Part shown: piece by piece, positions 7,604-22,030 of the stretch | How the letters are laid out: every line of letters starts with the position of its first letter | Numbering within the stretch: position 1 is the first letter of the stretch | NCBI GenBank assembly: GCA_040225955.1 | Contig: JBECUL010000003.1 | Coordinates: forward strand, 11,952-75,951 | Source: Candidatus Asgardarchaeum abyssi | GTDB taxonomy: Archaea > Asgardarchaeota > Asgardarchaeia > Asgardarchaeales > Asgardarchaeaceae | DNA: 64,000 nt | Direction: 5' to 3' | Made by a program: the position numbers and the translations under genes | The notes under the pieces: generated by a model | Told to the model about the DNA's origin: nothing | Seen by the model: only the letters and a program-made list of their open reading frames with translations | The model's database searches: none

Positions 7604-8265
7604 TTGTACCTAAGCCCTCCTTTCTTCCAATCAAATCCAACTTTTTTATCGTACCCAACTTTTTTGATCAATTCATGAATCTCTTTTACAGATTCCTCCT
7701 TTAATGAGGCCACTGGCAGTTCTGGTGGAAGATTCATGCGTTCTCTTCTTCTTATAGTTGAGCTCGTAAATGGTATTGGCTGTCCTGTCATAATTAGTTC
7801 ACTTACTACCTTTCGATGGGGCTTTGGAACGATTCCTTCCATAGGCTTTCTAAGTGGATATTTCCCTTCAGGCCACTCATAAGGTAGAATGATTCTTCTA
7901 AAGTCTGGATGTCCATTAAATTTCAACCCGAAAAGATCATGAATCTCACGTTCGATCCAGTTTGCACCAGGTAAAATCGATGCTAATGAATCGATTTCAT
8001 TAACGTCTTTTGGGACACGCGTTCTTAAACTTATAATACTTTTATTAGCCTCAAAGTGATACAGTAATTCAAAATCTAGCCCATCGTCCACACAAGATAT
8101 TGTTATTAACCGGATGTCCTTTTCCACTAGCAATTTTGCTGCCTTTATAATCGCTGATCTTTCTATGTCAATAATATATTTTTGTTCTTTAATTTTCTGT
8201 AAGCCTGAGATATAATCGCCAAGCTCTTGTTTAAGAATCTCTATCACATCATCAGCCAACAACAT
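7600..8265 (-). CDS. NuoC/MbhK-like (30-kDa) subunit with C-terminal extension
   Basis: ANWIEREIHDLFGLKFNGHPD...WP...PLRK. Confidence 0.88.
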   Translation of the reverse strand: MLLADDVIEILKQELGDYISGLQKIKEQKYIIDIERSAIIKAAKLLVEKDIRLITISCVDDGLDFELLYHFEANKSIISLRTRVPKDVNEIDSLASILPGANWIEREIHDLFGLKFNGHPDFRRIILPYEWPEGKYPLRKPMEGIVPKPHRKVVSELIMTGQPIPFTSSTIRRRERMNLPPELPVASLKEESVKEIHELIKKVGYDKKVGFDWKKGGLRYK

Positions 8266-8272
8266 TCACCTC

Positions 8273-10222
8273 CTAAATCATCAGTAAGTATATTAATATC
8301 ATAACAATCGCTGCGATGGCAATGTACACGTTTAGATATCCTATTTGTATTCTTCTAAGCTTGTTACTGAACCAAATAAGCGCTCTACCTATACCAAACC
8401 ATAATCTATCAAGGCCTCCTTTTTCCATGACCTTATATAAGCGACCAAAGAGAATCTTCGGAGAGAAGAAGAAAGCACTAGGATCAGGGCGTGTTTTTTC
8501 CATGGATAAGTAAGGTTCATCTACTTCTCCACCAGTAAAGATACCGAATTTTCCTTCTGTCTCAGTGAAATGTCTAATGGTACCAAGTCTATAAGCAATA
8601 AATCCTAATAGCAAGGAGAATGTCAAGAGTATAACTATTAACGCTGCATAGTATCCACCAACCGCACTAGCGACATATCCCAATGTAGATACAGTAAGAG
8701 TACCCCCAGCTAATGTTATTGCAGCTGGAATGATCAAGTAATTCAATGGGATATATGGTGCAATACCAAAAATGATACAAATGAGTGCTAAGACTACCAT
8801 TGTTACTTGCATAGGTATGGGCACTTCTTTTACATTTTCCAACTTCGTAGGTCTTGATCCAAAGAATGCAGAAAATATAAACTTCATGACTCCTGCAAAG
8901 GTCATAGCACTGGCAAATATTGCAAAGATGCCATAGAATAAGTAAAGCCCTCCAATAGCTCCACCCATTGCTAAGCCAACACTTATTGCGGCCTCGTATA
9001 TCATGAATTTACTAACAAAACCATTTAATGGAGGTATTCCTGATATAGCTAAGGCTCCTATAATACATGAAGCTGCCGTTACGGGCATATTTCTAGCCAA
9101 TCCACCCATTTTTCGCAGATCTTTAGTCTTAGTTGCATATATTAGGCAACCTGCTCCTAGGAATAATAGGCCTTTTATGAATACGTGATTAAAGAGATGG
9201 AAAAGCCCAGCAGCAATACCAAGAGTAGTTCCTATCCCGATAGCAAAAAACATATAGCCAATTTGAGTGATCGTTGAGTATGCTAGGAGCCTTTTTACAT
9301 CATTCTGAGCAATCATTGCAAATGAAGCAACAGCCATTGTTATGATACCAACAGTTGAAACAATAATGTTCCATTGTATCGTTATTGGGTATAGTAAATA
9401 TACTCGCGCAATTAAATAAACACCAGCTTTTACCATTGCCGCTGCGTCCAATAGAGCTGTTAGTGGAGAGGGTGCCACTGTGGCATCTGGCAGCCAAGTG
9501 TGTATTGGAAACTGAACAGATTTAGCCATAGCTGCAACTAAATATAAGGCCAATATTATATTTAATGCAACTTGAGCGTCTTCTGGAAGTTGCGAAATTG
9601 CTGTAGGTATCTCTGAGTAAACTGTAGTTCCGGTGAGAAAGAAAGTCCATATAGCACCAATAAGTAATCCAACACCTCCAGCATGTGTCAACATAATTGC
9701 CTTAAAGGAACCATGTAAGCTTTCAGGCTTTTTATAATAAAATCCAATTAGGCTGTAGGAGCATATTCCAACGATTTCCCAGAAAATGAACAGTAGTATT
9801 AGATCACCTGCAAATGCAAGTCCTATCATAGAACCGATAAATGTCAACATTAGGAAATAAAACCTAGGAATTCCCTCTTCATGAGCCATATCTGCTGTTG
9901 AATAAAGTAAATCAAAGGCTCCAAAGAATGAAGCTGCGATGCCTATAATTAAACTCAAAGCATCTACATAGAATGTGAAGCTGGTTCCTATCAATTTAGG
10001 AGCTACTAGAGGGATTATACTTGTTGACAATGTAGCTATAATTACTCTATTGTTGAGTATAACCTCTGGTATTAAGAGAAAAACAATTCCTGCACTTATA
10101 AATACAAGTATAGTAGAATACCAACCAACTAACTTCTTTGAAAATTTCCCAATCAATGGCGTGAGAAATGCACCCAACATAGGTATTCCAACAGCCAAGT
10201 ATACTAGTAATCCATAATCCAC
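8273..10222 (-). CDS. Large antiporter-like subunit (NuoL/HyfB/MrpA-like)
   Basis: FIFWEIVGICSYSLIGF, AKSVQFPIHTWLPDA, GIPPLNGFVSK. Confidence 0.92.
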   Translation of the reverse strand: MDYGLLVYLAVGIPMLGAFLTPLIGKFSKKLVGWYSTILVFISAGIVFLLIPEVILNNRVIIATLSTSIIPLVAPKLIGTSFTFYVDALSLIIGIAASFFGAFDLLYSTADMAHEEGIPRFYFLMLTFIGSMIGLAFAGDLILLFIFWEIVGICSYSLIGFYYKKPESLHGSFKAIMLTHAGGVGLLIGAIWTFFLTGTTVYSEIPTAISQLPEDAQVALNIILALYLVAAMAKSVQFPIHTWLPDATVAPSPLTALLDAAAMVKAGVYLIARVYLLYPITIQWNIIVSTVGIITMAVASFAMIAQNDVKRLLAYSTITQIGYMFFAIGIGTTLGIAAGLFHLFNHVFIKGLLFLGAGCLIYATKTKDLRKMGGLARNMPVTAASCIIGALAISGIPPLNGFVSKFMIYEAAISVGLAMGGAIGGLYLFYGIFAIFASAMTFAGVMKFIFSAFFGSRPTKLENVKEVPIPMQVTMVVLALICIIFGIAPYIPLNYLIIPAAITLAGGTLTVSTLGYVASAVGGYYAALIVILLTFSLLLGFIAYRLGTIRHFTETEGKFGIFTGGEVDEPYLSMEKTRPDPSAFFFSPKILFGRLYKVMEKGGLDRLWFGIGRALIWFSNKLRRIQIGYLNVYIAIAAIVMILIYLLMI

Positions 10223-10224
10223 AT

Positions 10225-10707
10225 TTATCCCTCCGCCACAACCTTATATGCGATTGCTAATTGTTTCTTTGCTTGTTCTCTCGGTACCAACTGTAATGCA
10301 TAAGTCGGGCAAAACTTTACACATTCTGGGTCGCCATCGCAAAGATTACACTTTTCCGATATTCTAGCATTAACGTCAAACCATGGTACAGAAAGTGGAC
10401 ACATCATGTTGCAGAGGCGACATCCTATACACTTAGCAGGTTGAATTCTCACGATCCCAGTATTTTCATCCTTCACTATAGCATCTACTGGACATACTGC
10501 CATACAAATTGGGTCGTCACAGTGGTGACAATATATGGCTTCAAACCTTAGAGTTTTTAGATCAAAATATATACGAATATTCGACTTGGATAGATCTACA
10601 ACTCCAAAGTGCTTATGAGAGCAAGCTATCATGCAGAAACGGCAACTTACACATCTATCCGAATCATGAACAAGAACCATTTGCTCTGTTTCATTCGTCA
10701 TTTGCAA
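10225..10707 (-). CDS. 4x[4Fe-4S] electron-transfer subunit (HyfA/HycB/AOR-associated ferredoxin-like)
   Basis: CVSCRFCMIAC, CHHCDDPICMAVCP, CIGCRLCNMMCP, KCNLCDGDPECVKFCP. Confidence 0.9.
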   Translation of the reverse strand: MQMTNETEQMVLVHDSDRCVSCRFCMIACSHKHFGVVDLSKSNIRIYFDLKTLRFEAIYCHHCDDPICMAVCPVDAIVKDENTGIVRIQPAKCIGCRLCNMMCPLSVPWFDVNARISEKCNLCDGDPECVKFCPTYALQLVPREQAKKQLAIAYKVVAEG

Positions 10708-11008
10708 TCTCGCTCGCTATTATTTTTTGACAAGGTTTGATTATTTTTCGTTGATAGAGATTATATAACTTTTTATTAAAAAGTCTAAAAAGAGTCGATG
10801 AATATTTTTCTAATTATTGGCACTTTCCAAAAAAAATAAATTGTTTTAACATCTTCTACAATATTTTTTATTTATTTTCTACAGATTTAGTTTAAAACAA
10901 GTTTCATTATTATTGCCATTACTAAAAGATAAATATGGATATTATTGTAAATATCCTCAATAATACTGTCGTTAAACATAAAAAAAGCATAAAAAAATTG
11001 TTAATTTA

Positions 11009-12373
11009 TCACTTAAACTGAAGTCCTAGCTCTTCTAGTTCTTTTTTTACCTCCAAATAGAGCTTATAGTGTTCTTCCTTCGGTTCTAAGGTATCTAAGT
11101 TATAAAGCTCCTCAAACGGTTTTCCAACGGGAGCTACTTCAAAATCTAACTTATCTTTGTACTTGTTATAAAGTTCTAAAACTATTTCATTGGCATCTTC
11201 TCTTTTGAGTTTAGCTGCAGCATGGGCTATTTCTCCAAACAGTCTTGCCATCAGTGGACTGTTATGATTATCATATTTTAGATCGGCAGGTCTTGGTCCC
11301 GCAACATGACTTCCGCTTGGAACAACGGCTATTTCCAGAGCAGCAAATTCATAAGCATACTGTTTTGATCCAGGTCTCCCAGAAGTTGTATGACTCGTAA
11401 GGTTAATTAATTTAGTATTTCTAGCTATAGCTTGTTTCACTCGACTGGCCATCCAGAGCGAGTGAATATTCGTCTGCGATTTATACTTTATATGTTGAGG
11501 CCCCATATGGAGTATTTCTGCGCCTAACATGAGCTCAGCAATATGTGTAGCCACACCAACTATAGCTGTACCTTCAGGGCCTCCTCCATAACCTCCTACT
11601 AATGGGGTTGCTGCAATGTAAATTGGATTCCCTCGATATTTATAGAAAGCTATTCTTCCAAGTCCAATATCATCAATTTGTAATTCCGAGATAATCATTA
11701 TTACAACTGGATCTGTTTTTCTTAAAAATCCCTCAAGAGCCATTGCAATATCATGCATAGCCATTTCTGCAAATGCAACTATTGGCATTCCAGGTCTTCC
11801 AGCTCTAGAAGTTGCTTCTCTTGCCCATTTTATGTATAGTAAAGCCTTGTATATTGCAAGCGCTGACTCGGGTCTTACATCTATTCCGTAGAGCGAACGA
11901 ATATATCCCGGCAGTTCTAGTAGATCGATTATTTCCTCTCTTGCATAAGCCTCGTTCATGAGAACAAATACTTTTTCAGATACATCACAGTTAAATGGGC
12001 CTCCAAAAATTATTGGTGGCTTCGTATCTTCAACACCACGAGGATATAGAACTCTTCTATTTTTTCCTTCACCTACTTCTAGTTTGTCTTTTGCATTTTT
12101 CAATGCATGCTTAACTTCACTCTCGTCAAAGATTATTCTTCTTCTCGTGTTTATACAATATATTCCTGTCTCCAAAAATAATCTGTATCCAAGTTCCCAG
12201 AGTTCATCAGCAACGCTATTATCAGTATTGACAGGTTCTTCTGGATTAAATTTGATGTCTGTTTCTTTTAATAATTCTCTTACTTTTGCAGCTAAAAGCC
12301 TGAGACTAAAATCTTCTGCACTCATCATAGGACCTGTTTCAGCTCTTTTAGCAATCTCAACAAAATTTACCAT
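11009..12373 (-). CDS. mtmB: Monomethylamine:corrinoid methyltransferase (MtmB) family protein, non-pyrrolysine, paralogue 1
   Basis: RAETGP, YCINTRRRI, AGRPGMP, GGYGGGPEG, GKPFEELY. No in-frame TAG. Confidence 0.85.
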   Translation of the reverse strand: MVNFVEIAKRAETGPMMSAEDFSLRLLAAKVRELLKETDIKFNPEEPVNTDNSVADELWELGYRLFLETGIYCINTRRRIIFDESEVKHALKNAKDKLEVGEGKNRRVLYPRGVEDTKPPIIFGGPFNCDVSEKVFVLMNEAYAREEIIDLLELPGYIRSLYGIDVRPESALAIYKALLYIKWAREATSRAGRPGMPIVAFAEMAMHDIAMALEGFLRKTDPVVIMIISELQIDDIGLGRIAFYKYRGNPIYIAATPLVGGYGGGPEGTAIVGVATHIAELMLGAEILHMGPQHIKYKSQTNIHSLWMASRVKQAIARNTKLINLTSHTTSGRPGSKQYAYEFAALEIAVVPSGSHVAGPRPADLKYDNHNSPLMARLFGEIAHAAAKLKREDANEIVLELYNKYKDKLDFEVAPVGKPFEELYNLDTLEPKEEHYKLYLEVKKELEELGLQFK

Positions 12374-12399
12374 CTTATCACCAACCTTACATTAATAAC

Positions 12400-14211
12400 T
12401 TATTCTTTATAACTCCAACCTCTAAGCTTGTAATATTCTCTAACAAACTCCTCAACATCTATAGTTTTCGGAATATCACACACATATCTTGGAACAACTT
12501 TAAATCTTAGAGGCAGTAATTCGTCCTCCTTAGAAATTCCAATCTTCTCATTAAATTCTCGTTTCAAACTAACAATCTTCTCTCCTATCTTTAACATATC
12601 TTCTAAAGATATTTCTATTCCAGTTACGGCCTCATAAAATTCTGGCACTAACGATGGTGGTGTTTGACCTGCCCATGATTCAAAGGCAAATAAACAGAAA
12701 ATCATAGACTCAACAACCTCTGTGAAGTCTTCAGTAATGACAACAGCCCTTGCAACATCATACGGTGTTGGATCTTCGATTTGCTCTATTCCAAGGTCGG
12801 GATTTCCATATATTAGAAATCCTGCGTCGGCACGGCTATGATCTGGGCCGTAGGGGCTAATTGCATATTTTAATCCCATCCCTATATACGTTCTTGGATC
12901 ATGCATTGGAATAGCATCATTCTTAACAACAATAAAGCTATCTTTTGATTCTGGACCTAAAGTTTCAATTATTTTTCTGGGTCCCTCTGCAATTATATTG
13001 CCGAAACCAATTCTTTTAGCAATCTTATCAATAACATCCAAAATTGCATCTCCGCATCCCCACTTTAAAGATATATCCTCTTTTTCTAAAAGGCCTTTTT
13101 CTTGCAGCTCTGTTAAAGCTGCTATTATCGATCCAGTAATAATGGTGTCCATACCATATCGGTTACATAGCTCATTAGCCTTTATGAGAGGCTCTACCTC
13201 GTTAATGAGGTTTAAACTGCCCAATGCAGCTAAACTTTCGTACTCAGGGCCTTTTTGTTTCTCAGCTTTAAACTTTCCTTCTTTAATTTCTACTATGACC
13301 TTGCATGCAACTGGGCAATTAAAACACGCCTTATGCTGAACAAAATAACCCTTATTCTTCATTGTAATAACACTAATATTTTGTGCATTTTTCACATCCC
13401 AATCATCTAAGAGCCAGTTCTTAAGAGGCAAATCCTTTTTTCTAAGTAGAAATGATAAATCTCCTCCAGTCCCACCTTCAGAGATGAATTTTATCCCTGG
13501 TTTCTCTTTTATAATTTTAAGTAATTGCTTATTGAGCTCTTTGACTTTATCTGGGTCATAAACTCTAACTTTATTAGTTCCGCGAACTACAATTGCCTTT
13601 AACTTTTTGGCACCCATAACAGCACCAAGACCTCGTCTACCAGCAGCGCATCCCATATCGTTTAGTATAGATGCGAATCTTACTAAATTTTCACCAGCTT
13701 GGCCGATAGTTAAAACTTTACTCTTCTCTCCATGAATCTTCTTTAGGTAAATCTCTGTTTCATAAGTATCTAGTCCCCATATTTCGCTCGCATCATTTAA
13801 TTCAATTTTATCATCAAATATAGATATATAAACTGGTTTTTCACTAGCCCCCTCAACGATTATTGCGTCGTAACCAGCAAATTTTAACTCTGCCCCCCAA
13901 AATCCTCCAGCGTCAGATTGTCCCCAAAATCCCGTCAGCGGGGATTTTGCAGAAATAATATGTCTTCCAGTCATAAATACCGACGTTCCAGTAAGAGGCC
14001 CTACTGCGAATACTAACTTGTTATTTGGAGATAGTGGATCTACCTTTGGATCAACTTCTGAGGTGATTATCTTTGTTGCAAAGCCAACTCCACCAAGAAA
14101 CTCTTTGATTATACCATTTTTCAAATCTTCAACTTTAATATCACCCGATGATAGATTTATCCTTAAGATTCTTCCGCAGTACCCATAATATTCAATCATT
14201 ATTAACACCAC
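12400..14211 (-). CDS. aor: Tungsten aldehyde:ferredoxin oxidoreductase family protein
   Basis: GRILRINLS, SAKSPLTG, AGRRGLGAVMGAKKLKAI, CFNCPVAC, GPEYE, DPR. Confidence 0.92.
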   Translation of the reverse strand: MVLIMIEYYGYCGRILRINLSSGDIKVEDLKNGIIKEFLGGVGFATKIITSEVDPKVDPLSPNNKLVFAVGPLTGTSVFMTGRHIISAKSPLTGFWGQSDAGGFWGAELKFAGYDAIIVEGASEKPVYISIFDDKIELNDASEIWGLDTYETEIYLKKIHGEKSKVLTIGQAGENLVRFASILNDMGCAAGRRGLGAVMGAKKLKAIVVRGTNKVRVYDPDKVKELNKQLLKIIKEKPGIKFISEGGTGGDLSFLLRKKDLPLKNWLLDDWDVKNAQNISVITMKNKGYFVQHKACFNCPVACKVIVEIKEGKFKAEKQKGPEYESLAALGSLNLINEVEPLIKANELCNRYGMDTIITGSIIAALTELQEKGLLEKEDISLKWGCGDAILDVIDKIAKRIGFGNIIAEGPRKIIETLGPESKDSFIVVKNDAIPMHDPRTYIGMGLKYAISPYGPDHSRADAGFLIYGNPDLGIEQIEDPTPYDVARAVVITEDFTEVVESMIFCLFAFESWAGQTPPSLVPEFYEAVTGIEISLEDMLKIGEKIVSLKREFNEKIGISKEDELLPLRFKVVPRYVCDIPKTIDVEEFVREYYKLRGWSYKE

Positions 14212-14241
14212 CGAGATTTATGCATAGATTTAAATGAATAT

Positions 14242-15249
14242 TCATTTCTTAAAAACAGGAATTACTTCATTGCCTATTAATTTCAAAGCCTTCTCTATAT
14301 CTTTGCCCAGAGGATATCCAAAGACTATATGCGTAACCCCTAAATCTACCATTCTCCTTATCTTCTTAATAATCTCCTCTGGTGTTCCAGTCAATGAAAA
14401 ATCGTTTATTATATCGTCTGTTATAAGGTTAGTTGCTTGCTCGCTTTTTCCCTCGTCCATGAGTTTGTATATTTTAATAATTACATCTGTCTCATGTCCT
14501 GCTTCCTTTAAAATTTCCATGGGCTCTCTGTAAATAACTGCAGGCATGTGCGGCTTAACAAATTCTTTTGCCTCATCAGAATCTTCAGATATTGAGCTAT
14601 ACATCCAATTTGCAATAGAAAAGTTCGAAGGATCACGTCCCGCTTTTTTAAGTCCTCTCATCACATACTTTTTTGAGCAATCAATCATTTTCTCAGAACA
14701 GGATCCAAAGATCACACCATCGGCAATTTTCCCACTAAGTGTTAACATCTGAGGCCTTCTTGCACCAATAAATATAGGCACGTTAACTGGCTCATCTTTG
14801 AATTGCAGATTGCAAACTCTAAAATTATAACTCTCCATACTTAGTTTTTCTCCACGTAAAAGTTTTCTAATCGCAATTACTGCATCTCTAACAGTAGCTA
14901 TTGGCTTATTCCACATCTCATAACACAACGGAGGAAGAGCGGATCCACCACCAGCTCCTATACCAAGTATAACGCGACCGTTAGAAATAGAATATAATGT
15001 TCTAATAGTTCTTGCTATCATAGCGGGATGTCTTGTATAGGGGTTGCAGATTGATGGCCCAACAATAACTTTTTTTGTTGCAAGAGCTATTGCTGCAAGT
15101 GTAATGAAGGTATCATTACAATCATAACTAGGATTCAAATCAGGAAGCCATACATAGTCAAAACCTAATTTTTCAGCCTCAACAGACCACTTAACTATAT
15201 CCTCTATAGGGAAATGTGTATATGGACTGAATACAAATTTCACGCTCAT
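14242..15249 (-). CDS. LLM-class (Mer-like) F420-dependent oxidoreductase
   Basis: GFDYVWLPD, CNPYTRHPA, GRVILGIGAG, PIFIGA, ADGVI, LTGTPEE. Confidence 0.85.
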   Translation of the reverse strand: MSVKFVFSPYTHFPIEDIVKWSVEAEKLGFDYVWLPDLNPSYDCNDTFITLAAIALATKKVIVGPSICNPYTRHPAMIARTIRTLYSISNGRVILGIGAGGGSALPPLCYEMWNKPIATVRDAVIAIRKLLRGEKLSMESYNFRVCNLQFKDEPVNVPIFIGARRPQMLTLSGKIADGVIFGSCSEKMIDCSKKYVMRGLKKAGRDPSNFSIANWMYSSISEDSDEAKEFVKPHMPAVIYREPMEILKEAGHETDVIIKIYKLMDEGKSEQATNLITDDIINDFSLTGTPEEIIKKIRRMVDLGVTHIVFGYPLGKDIEKALKLIGNEVIPVFKK

Positions 15250-15306
15250 GTTAAATTCCTCGAATATATTTTTATATATTTTATATACATTATAACTTAT
15301 TTATTT

Positions 15307-15323
15307 TCCAATTTAAAATTGGA
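15307..15323. promoter_or_regulatory. Perfect inverted repeat TCCAATTT-A-AAATTGGA upstream of the LLM gene; candidate TF operator
   Basis: 8-bp arms with a 1-nt spacer, ~60 bp upstream of the start at 15249. Confidence 0.35.
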
Positions 15324-15436
15324 CTTATCTCAACGTTCTTATCTTCTTATGAACGTTATCTTTTTGATCTTTCAAAAATTGATGTAATAAAAGCCACAAA
15401 GTTTACTGTAATATAAAAGAAAAAAGAAAATGATAG

Positions 15437-16801
15437 CTAAAGCTCTAGTCCTAATTCCTCTAATTCTCTTTTCACTTCTTCATATTCTTTCAAATGTTCT
15501 GGCTTTGGTTGTAAGGTGTCTAAATCGTAAAGTTCTTCAAATGGTTTCCCAACTGGAGACACTTGAAAATCTAACTTATCTTTATACTTCTTATAAAGCT
15601 CTAAAACAATTTCATTAGCGGTTTCAAGTTTTATTTTTGCTGCTGCGTGAGCTATTTCACCAAATAACCTTGCCATTAATGGGCTATTGTGGTTATCATA
15701 TTTTAAGTCAGCAGGTCGTGGTCCGGAAACATGACTTCCAGCAGTGACTACAGCTATTTCTAGGGCAGCAAACTCGTAAGCGAATTGCTTTGATCCTGGT
15801 CGCCCAGCAGTAGTATGACTAGTAGTATGAATCATTTTTGAATTTTTACTAACTGCTTGTTTTGCTCTACTTGCGACCCATAATGAGTGAATGTTCGTTT
15901 GCGACTTATATTTTATATGTTGCGGCCCCAAATGTATAATATCCCCATTAAGCATTACAGCTGCTATATGTTCTGCAACAGATACTATTGCTACGGTAAC
16001 TGGATCTCCAGCGAATCCACCCACTAATGGTGTAAACGCTATGTATATGGGTGGTCCAGTAGCGATATAGTATCCCAACCTAACTAGGGAAACATCGTCT
16101 ATTTTTAACTCAGGTAACATAACTATCGCTCTTGGATCAGTCTTTCTTAATCCCCACTCCTCATTGCTTGCCCCAATTTCATGCATTCCCATTAGGGCAT
16201 GGGCAACTACTGGCATCCCCGGTCTTCCAGCTCTCGAAAGAGCTTCACGTGTCCACTTAGCATAAAGTATTACTGTCTGTGGGGATAATCCTGAATTGGG
16301 CCTTATTTCTAGGCCATACATTTTCTTTAAATAGCCAGGAAGAAAGAGGACGTCAATTATTTCTTCTCTTGCATATGCTTCGTTCATAGGAACAAACACT
16401 TCTTCTGTGACATCGCAGTTAAATGGTCCTCCAAAAATTATTGGTGGTGTACTATCTTCTATACCACGAGGGTAGAGAACTCTTCTATCTTTTCCTTCAC
16501 CAATTTCAAGTCTATCTCTTACATTTTTTAGTGCATGCTTGACTTCACTTTCTTCAAAAAGGATTAATCTACGAGTGTTAACACAATAGATACCTGTCTC
16601 TAAAAAGAATTTGAAACCTGCTTCCCATAAATCATCAGCAAGTGTTAAATCCGTATTGACTGGCTCATTTGGATCAAACGTAACATCCAATTCTTTTTTT
16701 ATTTCTCTTAGTTTCATTGCTATTTTTTTCATATCAAAATCTTCTTCTGCTATCATGGGGCCTGTTTCAGCGCGTCGAGCCACTTCAATAAAATTGACCA
16801 A
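15437..16801 (-). CDS. mtmB: MtmB-family methyltransferase, non-pyrrolysine, paralogue 2
   Basis: Same motifs and length (454 aa) as 11009..12373; AGRPGMPVVAH; no in-frame TAG. Confidence 0.85.
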   Translation of the reverse strand: MVNFIEVARRAETGPMIAEEDFDMKKIAMKLREIKKELDVTFDPNEPVNTDLTLADDLWEAGFKFFLETGIYCVNTRRLILFEESEVKHALKNVRDRLEIGEGKDRRVLYPRGIEDSTPPIIFGGPFNCDVTEEVFVPMNEAYAREEIIDVLFLPGYLKKMYGLEIRPNSGLSPQTVILYAKWTREALSRAGRPGMPVVAHALMGMHEIGASNEEWGLRKTDPRAIVMLPELKIDDVSLVRLGYYIATGPPIYIAFTPLVGGFAGDPVTVAIVSVAEHIAAVMLNGDIIHLGPQHIKYKSQTNIHSLWVASRAKQAVSKNSKMIHTTSHTTAGRPGSKQFAYEFAALEIAVVTAGSHVSGPRPADLKYDNHNSPLMARLFGEIAHAAAKIKLETANEIVLELYKKYKDKLDFQVSPVGKPFEELYDLDTLQPKPEHLKEYEEVKRELEELGLEL

Positions 16802-16804
16802 GTT

Positions 16805-17476
16805 TCAGCCCCCCTTCTTTTTCTTTTGTTCCATCAATCTTTCACAAAGTTTCACGGCCTCGATAGCATCTCTAGCATACCCATCTGCGCCTATTTCATC
16901 TGCCCACTTCTGAGAACATGGAGCACCTCCAACTATAACAAGATATTTATCTCTTTTTCCTTGACTTTTGAGATACTCTATGAGGTCTCTCTGTTTCATC
17001 ATTGTTGTGGTAAGCAGTGCTGATGTTGCAATTATATCCGCGTTTACTTCTTCAGCGGCTTGTAAAAATCTTGGTATTGGAACATCTTTTCCAAGGTCAT
17101 AAACATCGAATCCAGCTGATTGAAGCATAGCAATGACTATAGTTTTACCGATATCATGAATGTCGCCCTCAACAGTTCCTATTACAACTACGCCTTTCTT
17201 TTCTACTTTTTGTCCACGTCTTACTATCTCTTCTTTAAGAACATCGACAGCTGCTTTCATAGCATCAGCGCCCATTATTAACTCTGGCAGAAAAATTTCC
17301 ATTCTGTCAAATTTTTCGCCCAATTCTCTAATTGCAACCGCAAATCCTTTTTCAATAGCCTCAAGAGGGTCTATTCCAGCCTCAATAGCCTCCTTTGCTA
17401 GTTTTACTGCTAAATCCTTATCATAGTTATAAATTGCCTCTTGCATCTTCTTAAATAACTCTTCTTTATCCACCAT
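16805..17476 (-). CDS. Methyltransferase cognate corrinoid protein (MtmC/MttC-like)
   Basis: B12-binding motif GTVEGDIHDIGK, SALLTTTM, VGGAP. Confidence 0.95.
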   Translation of the reverse strand: MVDKEELFKKMQEAIYNYDKDLAVKLAKEAIEAGIDPLEAIEKGFAVAIRELGEKFDRMEIFLPELIMGADAMKAAVDVLKEEIVRRGQKVEKKGVVVIGTVEGDIHDIGKTIVIAMLQSAGFDVYDLGKDVPIPRFLQAAEEVNADIIATSALLTTTMMKQRDLIEYLKSQGKRDKYLVIVGGAPCSQKWADEIGADGYARDAIEAVKLCERLMEQKKKKGG

Positions 17477-17488
17477 AACTTTTTCCTC

Positions 17489-18499
17489 CTACCTACCAAA
17501 AAGTTTGAGAGTAACACCCAGTTTCTTTTCCTTTGCATTCTTATAAATAATATAACCAACTGCTACATCTTCACTACCCATTCCAATTGGAGCAAAAAAT
17601 ATACGCTCTTTTGGATTTTCTCTCCCTGGCTTTTTACCTATGACAATATCTCCAAGATTCGCGTATATATCCTCATCTTTTATTAGCCCCTCTTTATACA
17701 TTTTTGCTAATACCGGTGTACCTCTATGAAGCACGTGTTCCCATTCGTCAACTACTATTTTATCAGAGTGAAGAACCACCTCATACTCCTCTTCCTGATA
17801 TGAACCAACATGAGAAAAGAAGCTTCCTTCTTTTACCCACTTATCCTTCACTATTGGTTCATCAGCGACCGTTACTGTAATTATAATATCGGCTCCTACA
17901 ACTGCATCTTTAGGTGTATCCACTGGTATTATTTTTAATCCAGTTTTTTCGCTCATCTCTTCGCTGTACTTAATGGAAGCCTCTTTTCGAATATCGTAAA
18001 CTCTGACCTCTTTAAGATTTTTGAGAACCTCTAATAAAGCTAATAGTTGGGTTCTCGCTTGAACACCTGCTCCAATCATAGCAACTATTTCTGAATCGGG
18101 TCTTGCTAAATATTTTGCTCCAACCCCCGTTACTGCTCCGGTTCTCATAGCACTGATTAAAGTACAGTCCATAATCGCTAATGGAAAACCAGTTTCGGAA
18201 TCGTTAAGTATCAAAAGACCGGTTGCTCTGGGCATCCCATATTTTATTGGGTTCTTTGGAAAACCTGCAATCCATTTTATTCCACAAACATTGAATTTGC
18301 CACCAACGTATGCTGGCATTGCATTTATCCTGCCTCTCCTTTTCTCGTCTAGATCTAAGACTACTTTAGATGGCACTATTACTTTATTCTCCGCGTGGAG
18401 TCTAAAGACTTCTTCAACTGTTTCTACAACAAGTTTCATAGTTAACCCTGATTCTTCAACTTCTTTTTGGGTCAAATAAATAAATTCGATATCTTTCAT
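17489..18499 (-). CDS. Ornithine cyclodeaminase/mu-crystallin family (imine reductase/alanine dehydrogenase-like)
   Basis: AMPAY, GIKWI, SAMRTGA, IGAGVQA, GMGSEDVA. Confidence 0.9.
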   Translation of the reverse strand: MKDIEFIYLTQKEVEESGLTMKLVVETVEEVFRLHAENKVIVPSKVVLDLDEKRRGRINAMPAYVGGKFNVCGIKWIAGFPKNPIKYGMPRATGLLILNDSETGFPLAIMDCTLISAMRTGAVTGVGAKYLARPDSEIVAMIGAGVQARTQLLALLEVLKNLKEVRVYDIRKEASIKYSEEMSEKTGLKIIPVDTPKDAVVGADIIITVTVADEPIVKDKWVKEGSFFSHVGSYQEEEYEVVLHSDKIVVDEWEHVLHRGTPVLAKMYKEGLIKDEDIYANLGDIVIGKKPGRENPKERIFFAPIGMGSEDVAVGYIIYKNAKEKKLGVTLKLFGR

Positions 18500-19947
18500 G
18501 AATATCCCCTTCTTTTGACCTCTTTAATATAATTTTCTAACTCTTTTTCAACATCTTTTTCTAATGGCACTTCTGGTTCGTGCTCACTTATTATCTTTTT
18601 TACAACCTCATGGGCACGTTCTACAATATCTTTAGAGCCCATTTGCTCCCATCTTTCCCGTCTCAATCTATCTCCAAGCTTAGGTATGAAATGATCCTTT
18701 CTAACATGTTCAAGGGTGTGTCTTTGTGCCAGAAAATGACCTCCTGGTCCAACGTTTCTTATTATATCAAGCGCTAAAGTTTCTTCGTTAACTTCAATTC
18801 CTTTCATAGCATGATATATCATACCAATGATTTCGTTGTCTATTACTAAGCTTTCCAAGCTTATTGTAAGTGCCAATTCCATTGTTCCTGGGTAGAAAAT
18901 CATATTAATTCCGCCCATGGCAGCCATAAGGCATGTTAAAGCTTTTTCATAGCCTGCTTGCATATCTAATATCTTTGAATCCGTCGCACAAGCAGTTCCT
19001 CTACTTGGTAAACCGTAAAATCTTGCAAGTTGTGCTGATGCTACATTTACGATCCCTATTTCAATAGCTCCTATTGAGATGTAACCAGTTCTCATGTCCA
19101 TTACTGTTCCCACAGTTCCATAAAATACAGGAGTTCCTGGACTAACTAATTGAGCTATAGTTATTGCTGCTAGTACTTCCGCATTTTGGATAACCAGCAA
19201 TCCGGCTAATGTTGCTGGGGCAGTAGCTCCAGCCTGGGGCTCTGAAGCTATATCAACAGGTTGTCTCATTTTTGCAAATTCTATGAGTCCTTCTAATTGA
19301 TCTGCATGCAATTGTAGTGGAGATATTGTGTTACTTGTTGTAAAAATCATAGGCTTCTTTCTAAGTTCCTCCTCCCCACCAGCAATTATAGAAGCCATTT
19401 TCAACATATCCTTAGCTCTTAATCGACCTCGGCATGTACCTTTAATTACCTTATCAGAATTCTTTACACTTTGGAGATATCCATAAACATGAGCAAGGTA
19501 GTCTGGAACTCCCTCTATATGAGGCATAATTGCTCCACTGTGAAGCATATGATAATTTTCCATTGCATCAGCAACCTTAATTAGATTTCCAACATCCTCT
19601 AAATTTGTTCTTCTAACGGTTTTTTTCTCATAATCATAAATGTTTAATCGACCGATCATGGGTTCATATACGACCTTTTTATCTTCTATCGTAACATTAT
19701 GCTTCTTATTCCTCGCGTAGACAGTAAACCTACTAGGAGCTCTTTTTACTTGTTCTTTAATTAGGTATTCTGGGAATTTTACAATTTTTGACTTATCATC
19801 AACATCCGCACCAGCTTTTTTCAGAATTTCTCTAGCTTCATCTAATTGCACAAAGATTCCTATTGTTGATAAAACTTCAAGTGTTGCATAGTGAATTTGA
19901 TAAATATCGTCCTTGGAGAGAATTTTGAGCTGCCCACCTCTAATCAT
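18496..19947 (-). CDS. mttB: Trimethylamine methyltransferase (MttB) superfamily protein, non-pyrrolysine
   Basis: IHYATLEVL, SPLQ, GATAPATLAG, NAEVLA, YGLPSRGTACATDSK, QAGYEK, GPGGHFL. Confidence 0.9.
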   Translation of the reverse strand: MIRGGQLKILSKDDIYQIHYATLEVLSTIGIFVQLDEAREILKKAGADVDDKSKIVKFPEYLIKEQVKRAPSRFTVYARNKKHNVTIEDKKVVYEPMIGRLNIYDYEKKTVRRTNLEDVGNLIKVADAMENYHMLHSGAIMPHIEGVPDYLAHVYGYLQSVKNSDKVIKGTCRGRLRAKDMLKMASIIAGGEEELRKKPMIFTTSNTISPLQLHADQLEGLIEFAKMRQPVDIASEPQAGATAPATLAGLLVIQNAEVLAAITIAQLVSPGTPVFYGTVGTVMDMRTGYISIGAIEIGIVNVASAQLARFYGLPSRGTACATDSKILDMQAGYEKALTCLMAAMGGINMIFYPGTMELALTISLESLVIDNEIIGMIYHAMKGIEVNEETLALDIIRNVGPGGHFLAQRHTLEHVRKDHFIPKLGDRLRRERWEQMGSKDIVERAHEVVKKIISEHEPEVPLEKDVEKELENYIKEVKRRGYS

Positions 19948-20338
19948 AATATTACCACCTTGTTCTTCATATAATTAATTCTCGGTATTGGTTATTAAAA
20001 TTCTTAAGGAAATTAATTGTTTTTTCTGCTTTTATGACATAGTTGCTTTAAAAGTGTTTAATAATATTTAGAAAAAATGCTAAAGAATAAAAAAGTATTT
20101 AAAAAATAAAAATTTTTCACACATAAGTATTATAAATTCAATACAAAAGCAATCGCCCGTTGATATGATATCTTAGCAAATATAAAAAATTATAAAAGAA
20201 AAAGGATTGCTAAAACTAAGAGCTTCAAAAAATAAATCAAATATAAACAATAATTGCCGAGTGTTGTCTATTATACCAAAAGTATTAAAAAAATGAAATA
20301 AAAGTATTAAAGCATAAAGTAAAAACAATAATAAGGCT

Positions 20339-21949
20339 GTGGAAATTGAATTAATAATGTATGTGCAGGTGTGTTTTTTGCATTCTAAAAAATCAAAGAT
20401 CTCTCATGCAGCTACATATAATATTTTTGAAATGAAAATGAAAAAGCCAATAATAGCATCTAAGAAAGTTACTATAAAAATAGAGAAAAGTATTAAACCC
20501 AGTTCCCTCTTCGAAATACTAAGAAGATCGATCGCTCTTTCGACTTCAGAGCTTAGCTACAAGGCACTTAAAAAGATACATTCGCTTTTTGGAAAGAAGT
20601 CGTTTGATGTAATAGCGATAACTAGTTATAACGGAATACTTCTTGATCTCCTATCAGAAAATGGGCTTCCTGGAAAAAATATATATGTCTCTATTATATG
20701 GCTTGATTACTTTTCAATCCATGGTGCACTTATAAATATCCGTACAGGCGAATTGGTCTCAATTGTCGAGAGAGAGAATTTAATTTCCTCAGAAGCTCCA
20801 GATGTTTTTTCTCTTACAGCTCAGATCATAAAGGATAGAAGCAAAGCGGAAGTCTTCAATTCAACCCTAAAATCTTCAGTTAATAAATTAGTTAAAGAAC
20901 TATGTAAGGTATCAAACATAAGTAAGGATGCGATTTATGGAATTTTTGTCATTGGGAATACTATTATGCATCATTTATTCTTGGGTCTCGATGTAACAAA
21001 ACTCGGCGAACCACCATTCTTACCAATCATCCGAGATAGTCTAACAATTAAAGCTAAAGATCTAAATATAAACATCAACAAAAGTGGCCTAATTTTTATG
21101 CCTCCCCTTCTAATAGGACATATAGGGTCAGATACACTCTCATGCCTAGCTTTATTAATTAACAAATATAAGAACAAAACAGTACTCCTTTTAGATCTCC
21201 GAAGCACAGGTAGTGCAATACTGTATAAGAATGATCAGATCTTCATAATGACTTTTCCAATAGGCGAAACCTTGGGCAGCTTTACATGGGAACAAGATGT
21301 AAGTGAAAGAGCCGAGGAGTATGGATTTGAGGAAGATATTGAACAAAAACCGATTTCCATGAAAATACTGCAACTGATTCCAATCATAAATTACCTACTT
21401 AAAGAAAAAATGGTCCTTGCAAATGGGCGAATTAATAGACTGGCTATTTATGAAAGTAGCAAAAGTTCCTCTATCCAGCTTATTGAAACAAAGAATAATA
21501 TCTACCTAAAAATAAAAAAAGATGGGGATGTCCAATATATTTCCCAGCGCGATATCAGAAACTTTCAAGTCATAAAATCTCTAATCTACATATATACAAT
21601 GAATTTATTGAAGAGAACAAACACAGCACCCGATGAAATAGACATCCTTTGTGTACTTGGGTATAATGTTCCAAAAAATGCCGATACTATTTTCTCGGGA
21701 GAAGTTCTTAAAAACTTGGGAATTCTTCCAATACGTAACCCAGAAAATATAAAGATAATAGTTTCCTCTAAAATGCCTCTATTTGGAGGTGCTTTATGCG
21801 TTCTTGACGCTGATCTCTTAAAATTTGTTAATAAAGTAATCAAGAAAATAAATTACATTAGTATAGAAGAAGATCAAGAATTCTTTTCTGAATTTATTAA
21901 TGCTCTTTATTTCCCAAATAGAAAAAGTATTATGAATGATAATCTATAA
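20339..21949 (+). CDS. RACo/RamA-like (ASKHA) corrinoid-activation-family protein, degenerate; start uncertain
   Basis: GNTIMHHLFLGLD..LGEPPF.P, GHIGSD, ISQRDIRNFQ..K, F.SEFINALYFP. DIGTT/DIGTNGE motifs are lost and there is no Fe-S domain. Confidence 0.7.
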   Translation: MEIELIMYVQVCFLHSKKSKISHAATYNIFEMKMKKPIIASKKVTIKIEKSIKPSSLFEILRRSIALSTSELSYKALKKIHSLFGKKSFDVIAITSYNGILLDLLSENGLPGKNIYVSIIWLDYFSIHGALINIRTGELVSIVERENLISSEAPDVFSLTAQIIKDRSKAEVFNSTLKSSVNKLVKELCKVSNISKDAIYGIFVIGNTIMHHLFLGLDVTKLGEPPFLPIIRDSLTIKAKDLNININKSGLIFMPPLLIGHIGSDTLSCLALLINKYKNKTVLLLDLRSTGSAILYKNDQIFIMTFPIGETLGSFTWEQDVSERAEEYGFEEDIEQKPISMKILQLIPIINYLLKEKMVLANGRINRLAIYESSKSSSIQLIETKNNIYLKIKKDGDVQYISQRDIRNFQVIKSLIYIYTMNLLKRTNTAPDEIDILCVLGYNVPKNADTIFSGEVLKNLGILPIRNPENIKIIVSSKMPLFGGALCVLDADLLKFVNKVIKKINYISIEEDQEFFSEFINALYFPNRKSIMNDNL

Positions 21950-22030
21950 TAAATAATTAATAATATCTACATCAGCAAGCAGATTAAACTTAAATATCAA
22001 GAATAATAAGATGAAAAATAATGCCTACTG

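Follow-up and report, generated by a model that had tools for sequence, protein, structure and literature searches.

Analysis of a 64,000-nucleotide stretch of Candidatus Asgardarchaeum abyssi DNA (the window) suggests, with a probability of roughly one half, that positions 11009-19947 hold, in its archaeal version, a conserved and uncharacterised cassette for corrinoid-dependent N-demethylation, with the mechanism and origin set out below. The cassette probably demethylates a betaine-like compound anaerobically. It always encodes together an MttB-family and an MtmB-family methyltransferase, both free of pyrrolysine, one corrinoid protein and one OCD-family enzyme; an uncultured Asgard-type archaeon and several anaerobic bacterial phyla have in common a vitamin-B12-dependent cassette with two unrelated demethylating enzymes.

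Gene organization and absence of pyrrolysine

The interval comprises seven genes, all on the minus strand, in the order mttB-ocd-corrinoid-mtmB-LLM (luciferase-like oxidoreductase)-aor-mtmB that a first-pass annotation had read from the DNA; the ORF limits coincide with its coordinates, and Pfam backs all seven identities (E 1e-28 to 1e-122). The ocd gene overlaps mttB by 4 nt, an AT-rich spacer of 187 nt lies ahead of the LLM gene, 301 nt lie ahead of the polyferredoxin gene, and gaps elsewhere are 0-30 nt; the two long gaps suggest three transcription units, not one. A metagenome contig (L070) that is 97-99% identical reproduces the whole ten-gene layout, and all genes are under purifying selection between it and the window (dN/dS 0.02-0.15).

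All seven frames are uninterrupted (in-frame stop or amber codons in 0 of 7). Alignment to the Methanosarcina barkeri enzymes places A321 at the pyrrolysine position of MttB (RGTAC-A-TDSK; 7XCL) and V199 at that of both MtmBs (the X of AGRPGMGV-X in 1L2Q/1NTH; AGRPGMPV-V in MtmB1, AGRPGMPI-V in MtmB2), so the earlier description of these enzymes as lacking pyrrolysine holds. The check for missing pyl genes and mcr that had been proposed with it found no PylS, tRNA-Pyl or McrA in the MAG, which is 93% complete with 7.8% contamination and whose absences are provisional.

The methyltransferases

The MttB-superfamily methyltransferase (MT1; 18496-19947, minus strand; PF06253, E 3e-122) scores 508.7 against TIGR02369, below the cut-off of 525, and its best PDB match is Desulfitobacterium hafniense MtgB (351 bits, full length). 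Its R316 corresponds to MtgB R312, the acid-group binder conserved in every characterised acid-binding MttB member (PMC13080624), and is invariant in cassette orthologues (column conservation, n=40). MtgB Y97, H348 and F356 are replaced by I98, Y352 and A359, which are likewise invariant in the 40 orthologues; because three of the four glycine-betaine-binding residues differ, we reject assignment of this protein as an MtgB-type glycine-betaine enzyme.

MtmB1 (15437-16801, minus strand; PF05369, E 4e-88) aligns to M. barkeri MtmB (1L2Q) over residues 9-452 (E 5e-60). The tree makes it orthologous to the one MtmB that bacterial cassettes carry, within a cassette clade of 100% support that contains archaeal and bacterial subclades. 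Column analysis finds a small residue (V, C or T) at the pyrrolysine position of cassette MtmBs; MtmB1 and 55 of 55 bacterial cassette members share H201 and R224 without exception. Glu229 and Glu259 of M. barkeri MtmB (1NTH), which we take to be pyrrolysine contacts, align to A225 and A255 of MtmB1.

MtmB2 (11009-12373, minus strand; PF05369, E 4e-85) is 70% identical to MtmB1, is distinguished by 27 columns, and arose by a duplication within the archaeal lineage that is older than the split between the window and an archaeal relative (L071). It is under purifying selection (dN/dS 0.07 against L070) and has a changed pocket (H201F, L203E, R224V, F153E, T176K). Loss of H201 and R224 points to a different ligand, not to the next homologue in a demethylation series, and the best explanation of the locus includes neofunctionalisation of MtmB2, as judged from these substitutions, in the archaeal lineage. 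The first-pass annotation had counted both MtmBs in the module and assigned the second and third methyl groups to them; the conserved core has one MtmB, and with a single cassette MtmB and a remodelled archaeal duplicate this division of labour finds no comparative support. Its statement that MtmB proteins without pyrrolysine have no demonstrated substrate has been overtaken by the function published for MtqB in 2026 (PMC13044021).

Conservation and origin of the cassette

The core order mttB-ocd-corrinoid-mtmB is kept in about 60 loci of Chloroflexota, Spirochaetota, Coprothermobacterota, Caldisericota and two archaeal relatives. Every one of the 63 non-archaeal loci with upstream room, which fall in the four named phyla, has it except one (L031), and its repetition in about 60 independent loci argues that the arrangement is not due to chance. 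The survey of mtmB neighbourhoods called for earlier, when lack of this combination in other genomes was named as evidence against the pathway, finds the combination conserved. The archaeal relative L071 keeps AOR2, LLM, MtmB2, MttB, OCD, corrinoid protein and MtmB1 in a different order.

The module had been described as archaeal; it is mainly a bacterial cassette, which a single small group of archaea also carries. Identity between the archaeal proteins and those of bacterial cassettes is 52-69% (59-69% for OCD), against at most 37% (MtmB1) and 45% (OCD) for homologues from 300 Asgard genomes; the difference suggests that the cassette entered, or left, the archaeal lineage by inter-domain transfer. 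The archaeal additions would be the Mer-like LLM, a further AOR and MtmB2 in neofunctionalised form.

Corrinoid protein and OCD-family enzyme

The methylamine-type corrinoid protein (16805-17476, minus strand) has B12-binding_2 and B12-binding domains, scores above the TIGR02370 cut-off (245.3 against 215.3) and carries DIHDIG (DxHxxG) at residue 105. It is encoded in a single genomic copy (tblastn), and with two MT1 families and only this corrinoid protein in the genome the earlier proposal of a shared corrinoid protein stands. A degenerate RACo/RamA-like protein encoded divergently (20339-21949, plus strand; weak Raco_middle and RACo_C_ter matches only; dN/dS 0.14 against L070) lacks the [2Fe-2S] domain and, in alignment with the intact RACo proteins of contig C5 and L071, the ASKHA phosphate motifs. 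The copy on C5 has Fer2, Raco_middle and RACo_C_ter; the local copy has decayed, and it is presumably this intact one that reactivates the corrinoid.

The OCD/mu-crystallin-family, NAD(P)-dependent amino/imino-acid dehydrogenase (17489-18499, minus strand; PF02423, E 1e-78; GxGxxA Rossmann motif at residue 143) is the only OCD of the genome and, as the earlier inclusion of such an enzyme anticipated, an obligatory cassette member across loci. It falls below every NCBIfam equivalog cut-off (top, the SbnB family, 283.7 against 326.9) and is about equally close, at some 220 bits each, to SbnB (4M54), Pyr2C reductase (6T3E) and AlaDH (1OMO). Its closest relatives, SbnB and TlLhpI, are oxidisers of N-substituted alpha-amino acids, TlLhpI acting on N-methyl-L-alanine, L-proline and L-pipecolate (PMC4141209).

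Aldehyde oxidation and possible accessory genes

The usual downstream partner of the cassette is a polyferredoxin with an AOR, replaced by a NAD-type aldehyde dehydrogenase (ALDH) in four loci: the next gene after mtmB in 47 classed loci is polyferredoxin/AOR in 25, ALDH in 4, OTCase/Hyu in 2 and other or unknown in 11, and in 5 the contig is too short. The exchange of AOR for the non-homologous ALDH occurs in two phyla, and since it places equivalent chemistry at the identical position, it links aldehyde oxidation to the cassette.

The earlier inclusion of an AOR is thereby upheld in its chemistry; the gene is another. The tungsten-type aldehyde:ferredoxin oxidoreductase paralogue inside the interval, AOR1 (12400-14211, minus strand; AFOR_N and AFOR_C; CxxCxxxC motif; best PDB match 1AOR), shares only 31-37% identity with AOR2 and bacterial cassette AORs, and is an extra copy in the window and L070, absent from the covered part of L071. 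AOR2 (22031-23899, plus strand; AFOR_N and AFOR_C; best PDB match also 1AOR) lies outside the interval and, by sequence comparison, is the orthologue of the AOR downstream of bacterial cassettes (43-48% identity, against 45-50% among themselves) and of the single L071 AOR (70%). Because the genome has at least 11 AOR genes, proximity of an AOR in the archaeon is weak evidence by itself. The polyferredoxin (10225-10707, minus strand; 16 Cys; Fer4 families and Cys motifs) is 33-40% identical to those preceding AOR in bacterial cassettes, and its gene also heads a membrane-bound hydrogenase-like operon.

The bacterial AOR also adjoins an OTCase/DPD-like/amidohydrolase/Hyu set, to which it could belong instead of to the cassette; contig C38 of the archaeal genome encodes AOR, DPD-like and amidohydrolase homologues within about 4 kb (tblastn). 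Possible accessories with a weak link in the window are HyuB and HyuA (35335-39104, minus strand; Pfam ATP-dependent hydantoinase/oxoprolinase/lactamase family), the sole Hyu proteins of the genome and 34-37% identical to HyuA/B downstream of the cassettes of Chloroflexota and one spirochaete, and a PreA-like, dihydropyrimidine-dehydrogenase-like protein (40296-41474, plus strand; Pfam DHO_dh and two [4Fe-4S]), 44% identical to the DPD-like gene adjoining bacterial cassettes.

Proposed pathway

An acidic quaternary amine, a betaine not bound in the manner of MtgB, would lose a methyl group to the MttB-type enzyme and the tertiary-amine product a second one to MtmB1, both loading one common Co(I) corrinoid protein. 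All characterised MT1 enzymes without pyrrolysine, including MtqB (PMC13044021), act on quaternary amines, and we infer the sequential order, since tertiary-amine demethylation without pyrrolysine is without precedent among characterised enzymes. This would leave an N-methyl amino acid or a cyclic secondary one, which the OCD-type enzyme would oxidise, using NAD(P)+, to an imine that hydrolyses. A pathway aldehyde would be oxidised by AOR2, yielding reduced ferredoxin, and electrons could pass through the polyferredoxin to the adjacent membrane-bound hydrogenase-like complex. OCD-family enzymes normally yield 2-oxo or imino acids rather than aldehydes, which leaves the origin of the aldehyde unexplained, except with a glycine or omega-amino-acid substrate or an aldehyde upstream of the betaine.

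From the corrinoid protein, an MtrH homologue would most likely hand the methyl groups on to H4MPT for oxidation via the Mer-like LLM, a route proposed for the archaeon because no canonical Mer, MTHFR, pterin-binding domain (MT2), ACS, CdhC or McrA was found in the 93%-complete MAG. The LLM (14242-15249, minus strand), of the F420 type, scores below the cut-offs of NF002619 (256 against 276) and TIGR03555 (247 against 348.7) and is one of four paralogues in the genome, none of them a canonical Mer, which is present in 26 of 61 Asgard genomes; its orthologue adjoins MtmB2 in L071. The LLM had been placed in backbone oxidation, but where a canonical Mer is lacking and Mch and MtrH (truncated, on another contig) are present, a C1-carrier role is simpler, and the LLM most simply replaces the missing enzyme.

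It is conceivable, though unlikely, that the MttB-type enzyme and the MtmB-type enzyme have separate substrates, each taking one methyl from its own quaternary amine by way of the common corrinoid protein, for example an acidic betaine and, as with MtqB, a choline- or tetramethylammonium-like cation, with OCD and AOR processing one product. Characterised MT1 enzymes without pyrrolysine do remove one methyl, from quaternary amines only (PMC13044021; PMC12155760; PMC13080624), and several Eubacterium limosum MttB members work with one corrinoid protein (PMC12155760), but no fixed cassette of those MT1 genes is described. That the two MT1 genes strictly co-occur in a constant order, with ocd between them, in four bacterial phyla and archaea would be unexpected if the substrates were independent, and the invariant R224 of the cassette MtmB would suit an acidic substrate, like that of its MttB partner. 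Somewhat less probable is an aldehyde step that comes first, in which AOR or ALDH converts a choline-like alcohol or aldehyde to a betaine; demethylation of the betaine would follow, with OCD acting last on the N-methyl amino acid, for instance from sarcosine to glyoxylate and methylamine. The replacement ALDH is indeed best matched by betaine-aldehyde dehydrogenase (510 bits) and aminoaldehyde dehydrogenases, MtgB is the closest characterised MttB homologue, and in one locus of Chloroflexota (L016) the gene immediately ahead of mttB encodes an Fe-type alcohol dehydrogenase, which recalls the Bacillus subtilis GbsB/GbsA pair. That alcohol dehydrogenase, however, is found in one locus only, every ALDH score is below its family cut-off (668.6 for betaine-aldehyde dehydrogenase), and the invariant replacement of three MtgB residues in cassette MttB argues against glycine betaine.

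The first-pass annotation had a trimethyl betaine demethylated by MttB, MtmB1 and MtmB2, then deaminated and oxidised by AOR, with LLM acting on the backbone. Three MT1 genes with one corrinoid protein at a single locus, and an MtmB2 conserved under purifying selection, would fit, yet the full route is improbable: one MtmB suffices in every bacterial locus, MtmB2 lacks the H201 and R224 invariant in all other members, and the genome, without a canonical Mer, has in the LLM a Mer-like protein. What survives of it is the gene combination, the shared corrinoid protein, the OCD and the link to an aldehyde; the series of two MtmBs, AOR1, the role of LLM and the archaeal label do not. That these are ordinary trimethylamine or monomethylamine methyltransferases working without pyrrolysine is scarcely credible: Pfam family membership and the trace monomethylamine activity of MtqB (PMC13044021) are set against A or V at the pyrrolysine position, alanines for Glu229 and Glu259, the failure to find pyl genes in the MAG, and an obligatory OCD partner that has no role in methylamine use.

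Comparison with known systems

Like the cassette MttB, MtgB of D. hafniense (2QNE/9YCE) lacks pyrrolysine, has the R312/R316 arginine and works with a methylamine-type cognate corrinoid protein (MtgC), but it removes one methyl only and has no MtmB-family partner, OCD or aldehyde oxidiser. MtpB, MtcB, MtyB and MthB of E. limosum, with MtqC/MtqA, serve proline betaine, carnitine, gamma-butyrobetaine and phosphocholine (PMC13080624; PMC12155760); they too are MttB members without pyrrolysine that transfer methyls from acidic quaternary amines to a corrinoid protein, whereas each removes one methyl, the cell excretes the tertiary amine, THF is the methyl acceptor via a pterin-binding MT2, and a second MT1 family and a dehydrogenase are missing. 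M. barkeri MtmB resembles MtmB1 in family, fold and AGRPGM motif, and differs in Pyl202 (valine in MtmB1), in its two glutamates and in the cassette-side invariants H201 and R224. The only MtmB-family enzyme without pyrrolysine with a demonstrated function, the tetramethylammonium/choline methyltransferase MtqB of Methanococcoides methylutens Q3c, likewise has its own corrinoid protein (MtqC), but it serves methanogenesis via MtbA and CoM, with no MttB-type partner or OCD reported (PMC13044021). SbnB, TlLhpI (Pyr2C reductase/N-methyl-L-alanine dehydrogenase) and AfAlaDH are NAD(P)-dependent oxidisers of N-substituted or cyclic amino acids at the C-alpha to N bond, an activity that the window OCD would share; the window enzyme, below all curated cut-offs, is alone among them in lying inside a corrinoid methyltransferase operon.

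Organization of the gene cluster

The minus strand of the Candidatus Asgardarchaeum abyssi window carries, between positions 11009 and 19947, a real and conserved gene cassette of predicted methyl transfer and amine oxidation. The seven open reading frames proposed in the first-pass annotation lie exactly where it placed them, all on the minus strand and every frame open. They encode an MttB-superfamily protein (18496-19947), an OCD/mu-crystallin protein (OCD; 17489-18499), a methylamine-type corrinoid protein (16805-17476), the MtmB-family protein MtmB1 (15437-16801), a Mer-like luciferase-like oxidoreductase (LLM; 14242-15249), an aldehyde:ferredoxin oxidoreductase (AOR1; 12400-14211) and a second MtmB-family protein, MtmB2 (11009-12373). 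All seven are assigned with Pfam and NCBIfam; the corrinoid protein exceeds the TIGR02370 cut-off (245.3 bits versus 215.3), and its DxHxxG cobalamin motif reads DIHDIG at residue 105. Upstream of mttB and divergent from it are a RACo/RamA-like gene (20339-21949) and a second AOR, AOR2 (22031-23899). Gene spacing suggests three units at the locus: the four genes from mttB to mtmB1 overlap or are separated by 12 nt or less, a 187-nt AT-rich spacer divides mtmB1 from LLM-AOR1-mtmB2, and 301 nt separate mtmB2 from the polyferredoxin gene that heads a membrane-bound hydrogenase-like operon.

That complex-I/Mbh-like operon (1446-10707) encodes the polyferredoxin, antiporter-like subunits and NuoC-, NuoD/NiFe-, NuoH-, NuoI- and NuoB-like proteins, and has an insertion, encoding an HdrB-like CCG-domain protein (6713-7603), between the genes of the NuoC-like and the large subunit. 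Elsewhere in the window, a 2075-residue open reading frame (27022-33249) is probably a large surface protein; its domain matches are to CarboxypepD_reg and SpaA-like domains only, and beta-propeller/FG-GAP proteins lie on either side.

MtmB paralogues without pyrrolysine

MtmB1 and MtmB2, which are 70% identical, match PF05369 (E = 3.8e-88 and 3.9e-85, respectively) over profile positions 3-450 of 450. Neither is a pyrrolysine (Pyl)-dependent monomethylamine methyltransferase: the position of Pyl202 in M. barkeri MtmB is occupied by V199 in both (AGRPGMPV-V in MtmB1, AGRPGMPI-V in MtmB2), and pylS and tRNA-Pyl were not found in the 93%-complete genome. MtmB proteins of the cassette generally have a small residue (V, C or T) at this position, and alanines where M. 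barkeri MtmB has Glu229 and Glu259, two residues in contact with Pyl. H201 and R224 are invariant in MtmB1 and in all 55 bacterial cassette MtmB proteins. MtmB2 has F201 and V224, together with E153, E203 and K176, each fixed in its four members; because its predicted pocket is different, the ligand of MtmB2 probably differs from that of MtmB1. A third MtmB of the genome, on another contig (C9), is 36% identical and has no methyltransferase genes as neighbours. The first-pass annotation held that MtmB proteins lacking Pyl have no demonstrated substrate, a statement since superseded by MtqB (ACT9XH_RS04775), a non-Pyl MtmB that acts as a tetramethylammonium/choline methyltransferase and has a conserved Met/Cys/aromatic pocket (PMC13044021).

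The MttB-type enzyme and its partners

The MttB-type protein is a full-length family member (PF06253, E = 3.4e-122, profile positions 30-496 of 500) with an open frame in which A321 (RGTAC-A-TDSK) aligns to the Pyl residue of M. barkeri MttB (7XCL; Pyl334). It falls short of the equivalog for the trimethylamine methyltransferase MttB proper (TIGR02369, 508.7 bits versus a cut-off of 525), and its closest solved relative is the glycine betaine methyltransferase MtgB, which binds its substrate with Y97, R312, H348 and F356; the equivalent of R312 is kept in all characterised members, every substrate of which is an acidic quaternary amine (PMC13080624). Only one of these four residues is retained here (R312 as R316), the others being replaced by I98, Y352 and A359, so identity with MtgB is rejected; these three residues and a further R100 are invariant in 40 cassette MttB orthologues. 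Since R316 is kept and the other three MtgB residues are replaced, the enzyme should bind an acidic quaternary amine, but not in the manner of MtgB with glycine betaine.

The OCD homologue matches superfamily PF02423 (E = 1e-78) and scores below all NCBIfam equivalog cut-offs, whether for SbnB (283.7 versus 326.9), alanine dehydrogenase (258.4 versus 409) or OCD proper (131-243 versus 337-417). It carries a Rossmann motif and an Arg/Lys/Arg pattern that we take to be the carboxylate triad of the OCD family. It is about equally near SbnB, the Archaeoglobus alanine dehydrogenase and the Thermococcus Pyr2C reductase, the last of which additionally accepts N-methyl-L-alanine, L-proline and L-pipecolate as substrates of NAD+-dependent oxidation (PMC4141209).

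The LLM is not a canonical Mer (TIGR03555, 247.4 bits versus 348.7; NF002619, 256 versus 276), canonical Asgard Mer proteins scoring 353-500 bits and occurring in 26 of 61 sampled Asgard genomes. Four Mer-like LLM paralogues are encoded in the genome; at 223-252 bits to TIGR03555 all fall short of the Mer cut-off, and a Mer-like function for the cluster LLM is our working idea. Its closest paralogue (54% identity) runs off the start of the window (2-913); the others are on contigs C18 and C50.

Both AOR proteins contain AFOR_N and AFOR_C domains and a CxxCxxxC motif at residues 295-296, features that point to the tungsten AOR family. AOR1 is not the conserved AOR of the cassette, being 31-37% identical to the bacterial cassette AORs as against 43-48% for AOR2; because the latter range matches the identity of the bacterial AORs among themselves, AOR2 is taken as their orthologue. 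The local RACo/RamA-like protein can be dismissed as the corrinoid activase: it has no Fer2 ([2Fe-2S]) domain and has lost the ASKHA phosphate-binding motifs, its segments WLDYFS, DLRSTGS and LG-YNV standing in place of the DIGTTT, DIGTNGE and GGFGS of intact homologues. Its reading frame is nonetheless intact and under purifying selection (dN/dS 0.14 against L070, an archaeal relative on a metagenome contig). An intact RACo is encoded on contig C5 of the same genome.

Conservation of the cassette in Bacteria

Species-representative genomes, scanned by alignment, and metagenome contigs were searched for close relatives of MtmB1, and 63 non-archaeal loci were found to encode one (51-59% identity). 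MttB, OCD, corrinoid protein and MtmB follow in this order on one strand at every locus with room upstream except L031, so the conservation that the first-pass annotation expected of the gene combination holds for the core across the survey. The named phyla are Chloroflexota (mostly Anaerolineae), Spirochaetota, Coprothermobacterota and Caldisericota. Where the gene after mtmB could be classed (47 loci), it is a polyferredoxin gene with an AOR gene in 25 and an NAD-type aldehyde dehydrogenase (ALDH) gene in four, with no contig room in five. The four ALDH loci are from Coprothermobacterota, Caldisericota and an unclassified bacterium, and the best, sub-threshold matches of their enzymes are to betaine-aldehyde and aminoaldehyde dehydrogenases. 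That AOR gives way, at the same position, to a non-homologous enzyme with the same chemistry is the strongest indication of an aldehyde in the pathway.

In four Spirochaetota loci (L029, L031, L032 and L037) the cassette-clade mtmB is followed by genes for an ABC-transporter ATPase, a deoxyhypusine-synthase-like protein, a pterin-binding MT2 and an Fe-S flavoprotein. L032 and L037 carry the core, L031 lacks MttB, OCD and corrinoid protein genes upstream, and the L029 sequence breaks off about 300 bp ahead of mtmB; these loci may represent a different pathway around the same corrinoid-loading methyltransferase (MT1). In L032, from a metagenome-assembled genome (MAG), OCD and MtmB are each split into two adjacent pieces by frameshifts or assembly errors.

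Neighbouring genes offer hints of substrate. Chloroflexota cassettes adjoin genes for a GntR regulator, a mannose-type PTS, an OTCase-like carbamoyltransferase, a PreA-like reductase, an SsnA-like amidohydrolase and the ATP-dependent hydantoinase/lactamase HyuA/B; spirochaete cassettes adjoin FTHFS, and in one spirochaete mtmB is followed by HyuA/B and OTCase. An NMT1-type ABC transporter occurs at one locus, and an Fe-ADH with an Ldh_2 protein at another. A HyuB label upstream in L021 (Coprothermobacterota), given by one blastp pass, was not reproduced in a stricter pass. The window holds the only HyuA/B genes of its genome (35335-39104) and a PreA-like gene (40296-41474), 15-20 kb from the cassette and at 34-44% identity. 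Such neighbours could connect the cassette with sarcosine derived from creatinine-type rings, with beta-alanine formed when pyrimidines are broken down reductively or with compounds of the proline family; because no single substrate fits all neighbour sets, we claim none.

Archaeal relatives and origin of the cassette

The nearest named homologue of MtmB1 is from 'Candidatus Asgardarchaeia archaeon' (an Asgard class). L070 has the same ten-gene layout as the window, with proteins 94-99% identical. In L071, the second archaeal relative, the proteins are 70-83% identical (LLM, 48%) and the order on one strand is AOR2-LLM-MtmB2-MttB-OCD-corrinoid protein-MtmB1, followed by an intact RACo gene at the matching place. 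Their presence in the window, L070 and L071 marks MtmB2, LLM and one AOR as conserved additions of the archaeal lineage; AOR1 is a further extra, present in the window and L070 and absent from the available part of L071. Comparison with L070 gives dN/dS values of 0.02-0.15, indicating purifying selection on all genes except the polyferredoxin gene, in which changes are too few to judge. Across window positions 10225-23899, aligned to L070:48-13710, dS is mosaic: 0.28-0.37 in mttB-ocd-corrinoid protein-mtmB1, 0.16 in LLM and AOR1, 0.085 in mtmB2, and 0.02-0.04 in AOR2, the RamA-like gene and the polyferredoxin gene. This looks like replacement of the core cassette allele through recombination between related populations.

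A vertical Asgard origin is not supported, other Asgard homologues being far less similar: among 300 further genomes of the phylum, identity to the window proteins reaches at most 37% for MtmB and 45% for OCD, as against 51-59% and 59-69%, respectively, for the bacterial cassette proteins. A tree of 83 MtmB homologues groups the cassette proteins in a clade with 100% support, outside which the other Asgard MtmB proteins fall; within the clade, archaeal (97%) and bacterial (99%) proteins form separate subclades. The archaeal subclade holds both MtmB1-type and MtmB2-type proteins, their duplication predating the split between the window and L071. The pattern is best read as transfer of the whole cassette between domains, in either direction because the two subclades are sisters; the transfer is not recent, since the GC content (0.36) is that of the host, compared with 0.43-0.67 in the bacteria.

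Genome content and the putative one-carbon route

The MAG (2.6 Mb in 189 contigs, 93% complete, 7.8% contamination) is the sole member of its class in the genome collection. As the first-pass annotation anticipated, Pyl machinery and mcr were not detected in it: the top PylS_Cterm match scores 23.9 bits against a cut-off of 178, not above noise; none of the 31 tRNAs found by ARAGORN has a CUA anticodon; and the 93%-complete MAG yields no MCR_alpha match for McrA, which argues against methylotrophic methanogenesis. CdhC/ACS, MTHFR and a pterin-binding MT2 were likewise not found in this 93%-complete assembly; Mch and a URO-D-family protein are present. There is one corrinoid protein, one OCD and one MttB, along with three MtmB proteins and at least 11 AOR paralogues. 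The sole MtrH homologue (contig C89, L105:1-2683) is truncated where the contig stops. Immediately upstream of it is a third AOR paralogue (40% identity to AOR2), and the contig also encodes a polyferredoxin homologue. On contig C38 (about 15250-19460), tblastn locates, in a stretch of about 4 kb, homologues of AOR (15254-17167), a PreA-like DHO_dh (17211-18104) and an SsnA-like amidohydrolase (18125-19462); these three also come after the cassette in Chloroflexota.

Proposed pathway and alternatives

The composition and conservation of the cassette are consistent with anaerobic betaine demethylation, to which we assign a probability of about 0.5. The MttB-type enzyme would remove the first methyl group from an acidic betaine and MtmB1 a methyl group from the product, both loading the single corrinoid protein; the OCD-type enzyme would oxidise the leftover N-methyl or cyclic amino acid; and AOR2 with polyferredoxin would oxidise a pathway aldehyde, the low-potential electrons possibly passing to the adjacent hydrogenase-like complex. 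In the archaeon, MtrH would move the methyl group to H4MPT and one Mer-like LLM would oxidise it, the cluster LLM being the obvious candidate because it is kept beside MtmB2 in L071.

The scheme has weak points. OCD-family enzymes usually give 2-oxo or imino acids rather than aldehydes. An order of reactions in which the aldehyde step comes first is a conceivable, if improbable, alternative. Further, MT1 enzymes lacking Pyl are not known to use non-quaternary amines (PMC13044021, PMC12155760); the two methyltransferases might instead work in parallel on two quaternary amines, one each, a reading that takes in the quaternary substrates of MtqB and must accommodate the fixed association of both enzymes with one corrinoid protein, and that we consider unlikely. 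The first-pass annotation had MttB, MtmB1 and MtmB2 strip three methyl groups stepwise before OCD and AOR acted. Its outline of joined demethylation and oxidation partly stands and several of its particulars do not; the three-step scheme would give MtmB2 a role, but bacterial cassettes retain the core with one MtmB, and we think it quite improbable. Plain methylamine use, which the family names would suggest, is scarcely credible for proteins with V199 and A321 at the Pyl positions.

Returning to betaine demethylation, a more far-reaching possibility, which we put forward tentatively, is that the cassette MtmB demethylates a tertiary or secondary amine without Pyl and, with the MttB-type enzyme, the OCD-type enzyme and AOR, forms the first complete oxygen-free route of betaine mineralisation, extended in the Asgard lineage by the remodelled MtmB2 and a Mer-like enzyme, perhaps to the last methyl group or to released methylamine. 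To our knowledge, demethylation of non-quaternary amines has so far been thought to need Pyl.

Comparison with known systems

The families of the individual parts are known, and the chemistry of MT1 and corrinoid proteins is established. The literature searched contained no counterpart of this fixed arrangement, in which MttB-type and MtmB-type enzymes share a single corrinoid protein and are joined by an OCD-type dehydrogenase and an aldehyde oxidiser, and a search for MttB with ornithine cyclodeaminase and corrinoid returned nothing. We know of substrates for only one non-Pyl MtmB and six members of the MttB superfamily. The cassette has a fixed composition, occurs in an Asgard lineage and in no fewer than four bacterial phyla, and joins two MT1 families with an amine dehydrogenase and an aldehyde oxidiser. 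It is therefore a candidate for the anaerobic steps still missing downstream of dimethylglycine- or N-methylproline-type intermediates, which matters for osmolyte turnover as well as for methylamine and methane precursors in sediments. It would also be a whole catabolic cassette moved between domains into Asgard archaea and then rewired in that lineage to an H4MPT/F420/ferredoxin economy. New here are the Asgard copy with its additions, the loss in MtmB2 of otherwise invariant residues and the displacement of AOR by ALDH; every system known to us takes one methyl group off a quaternary amine and leaves the tertiary amine.
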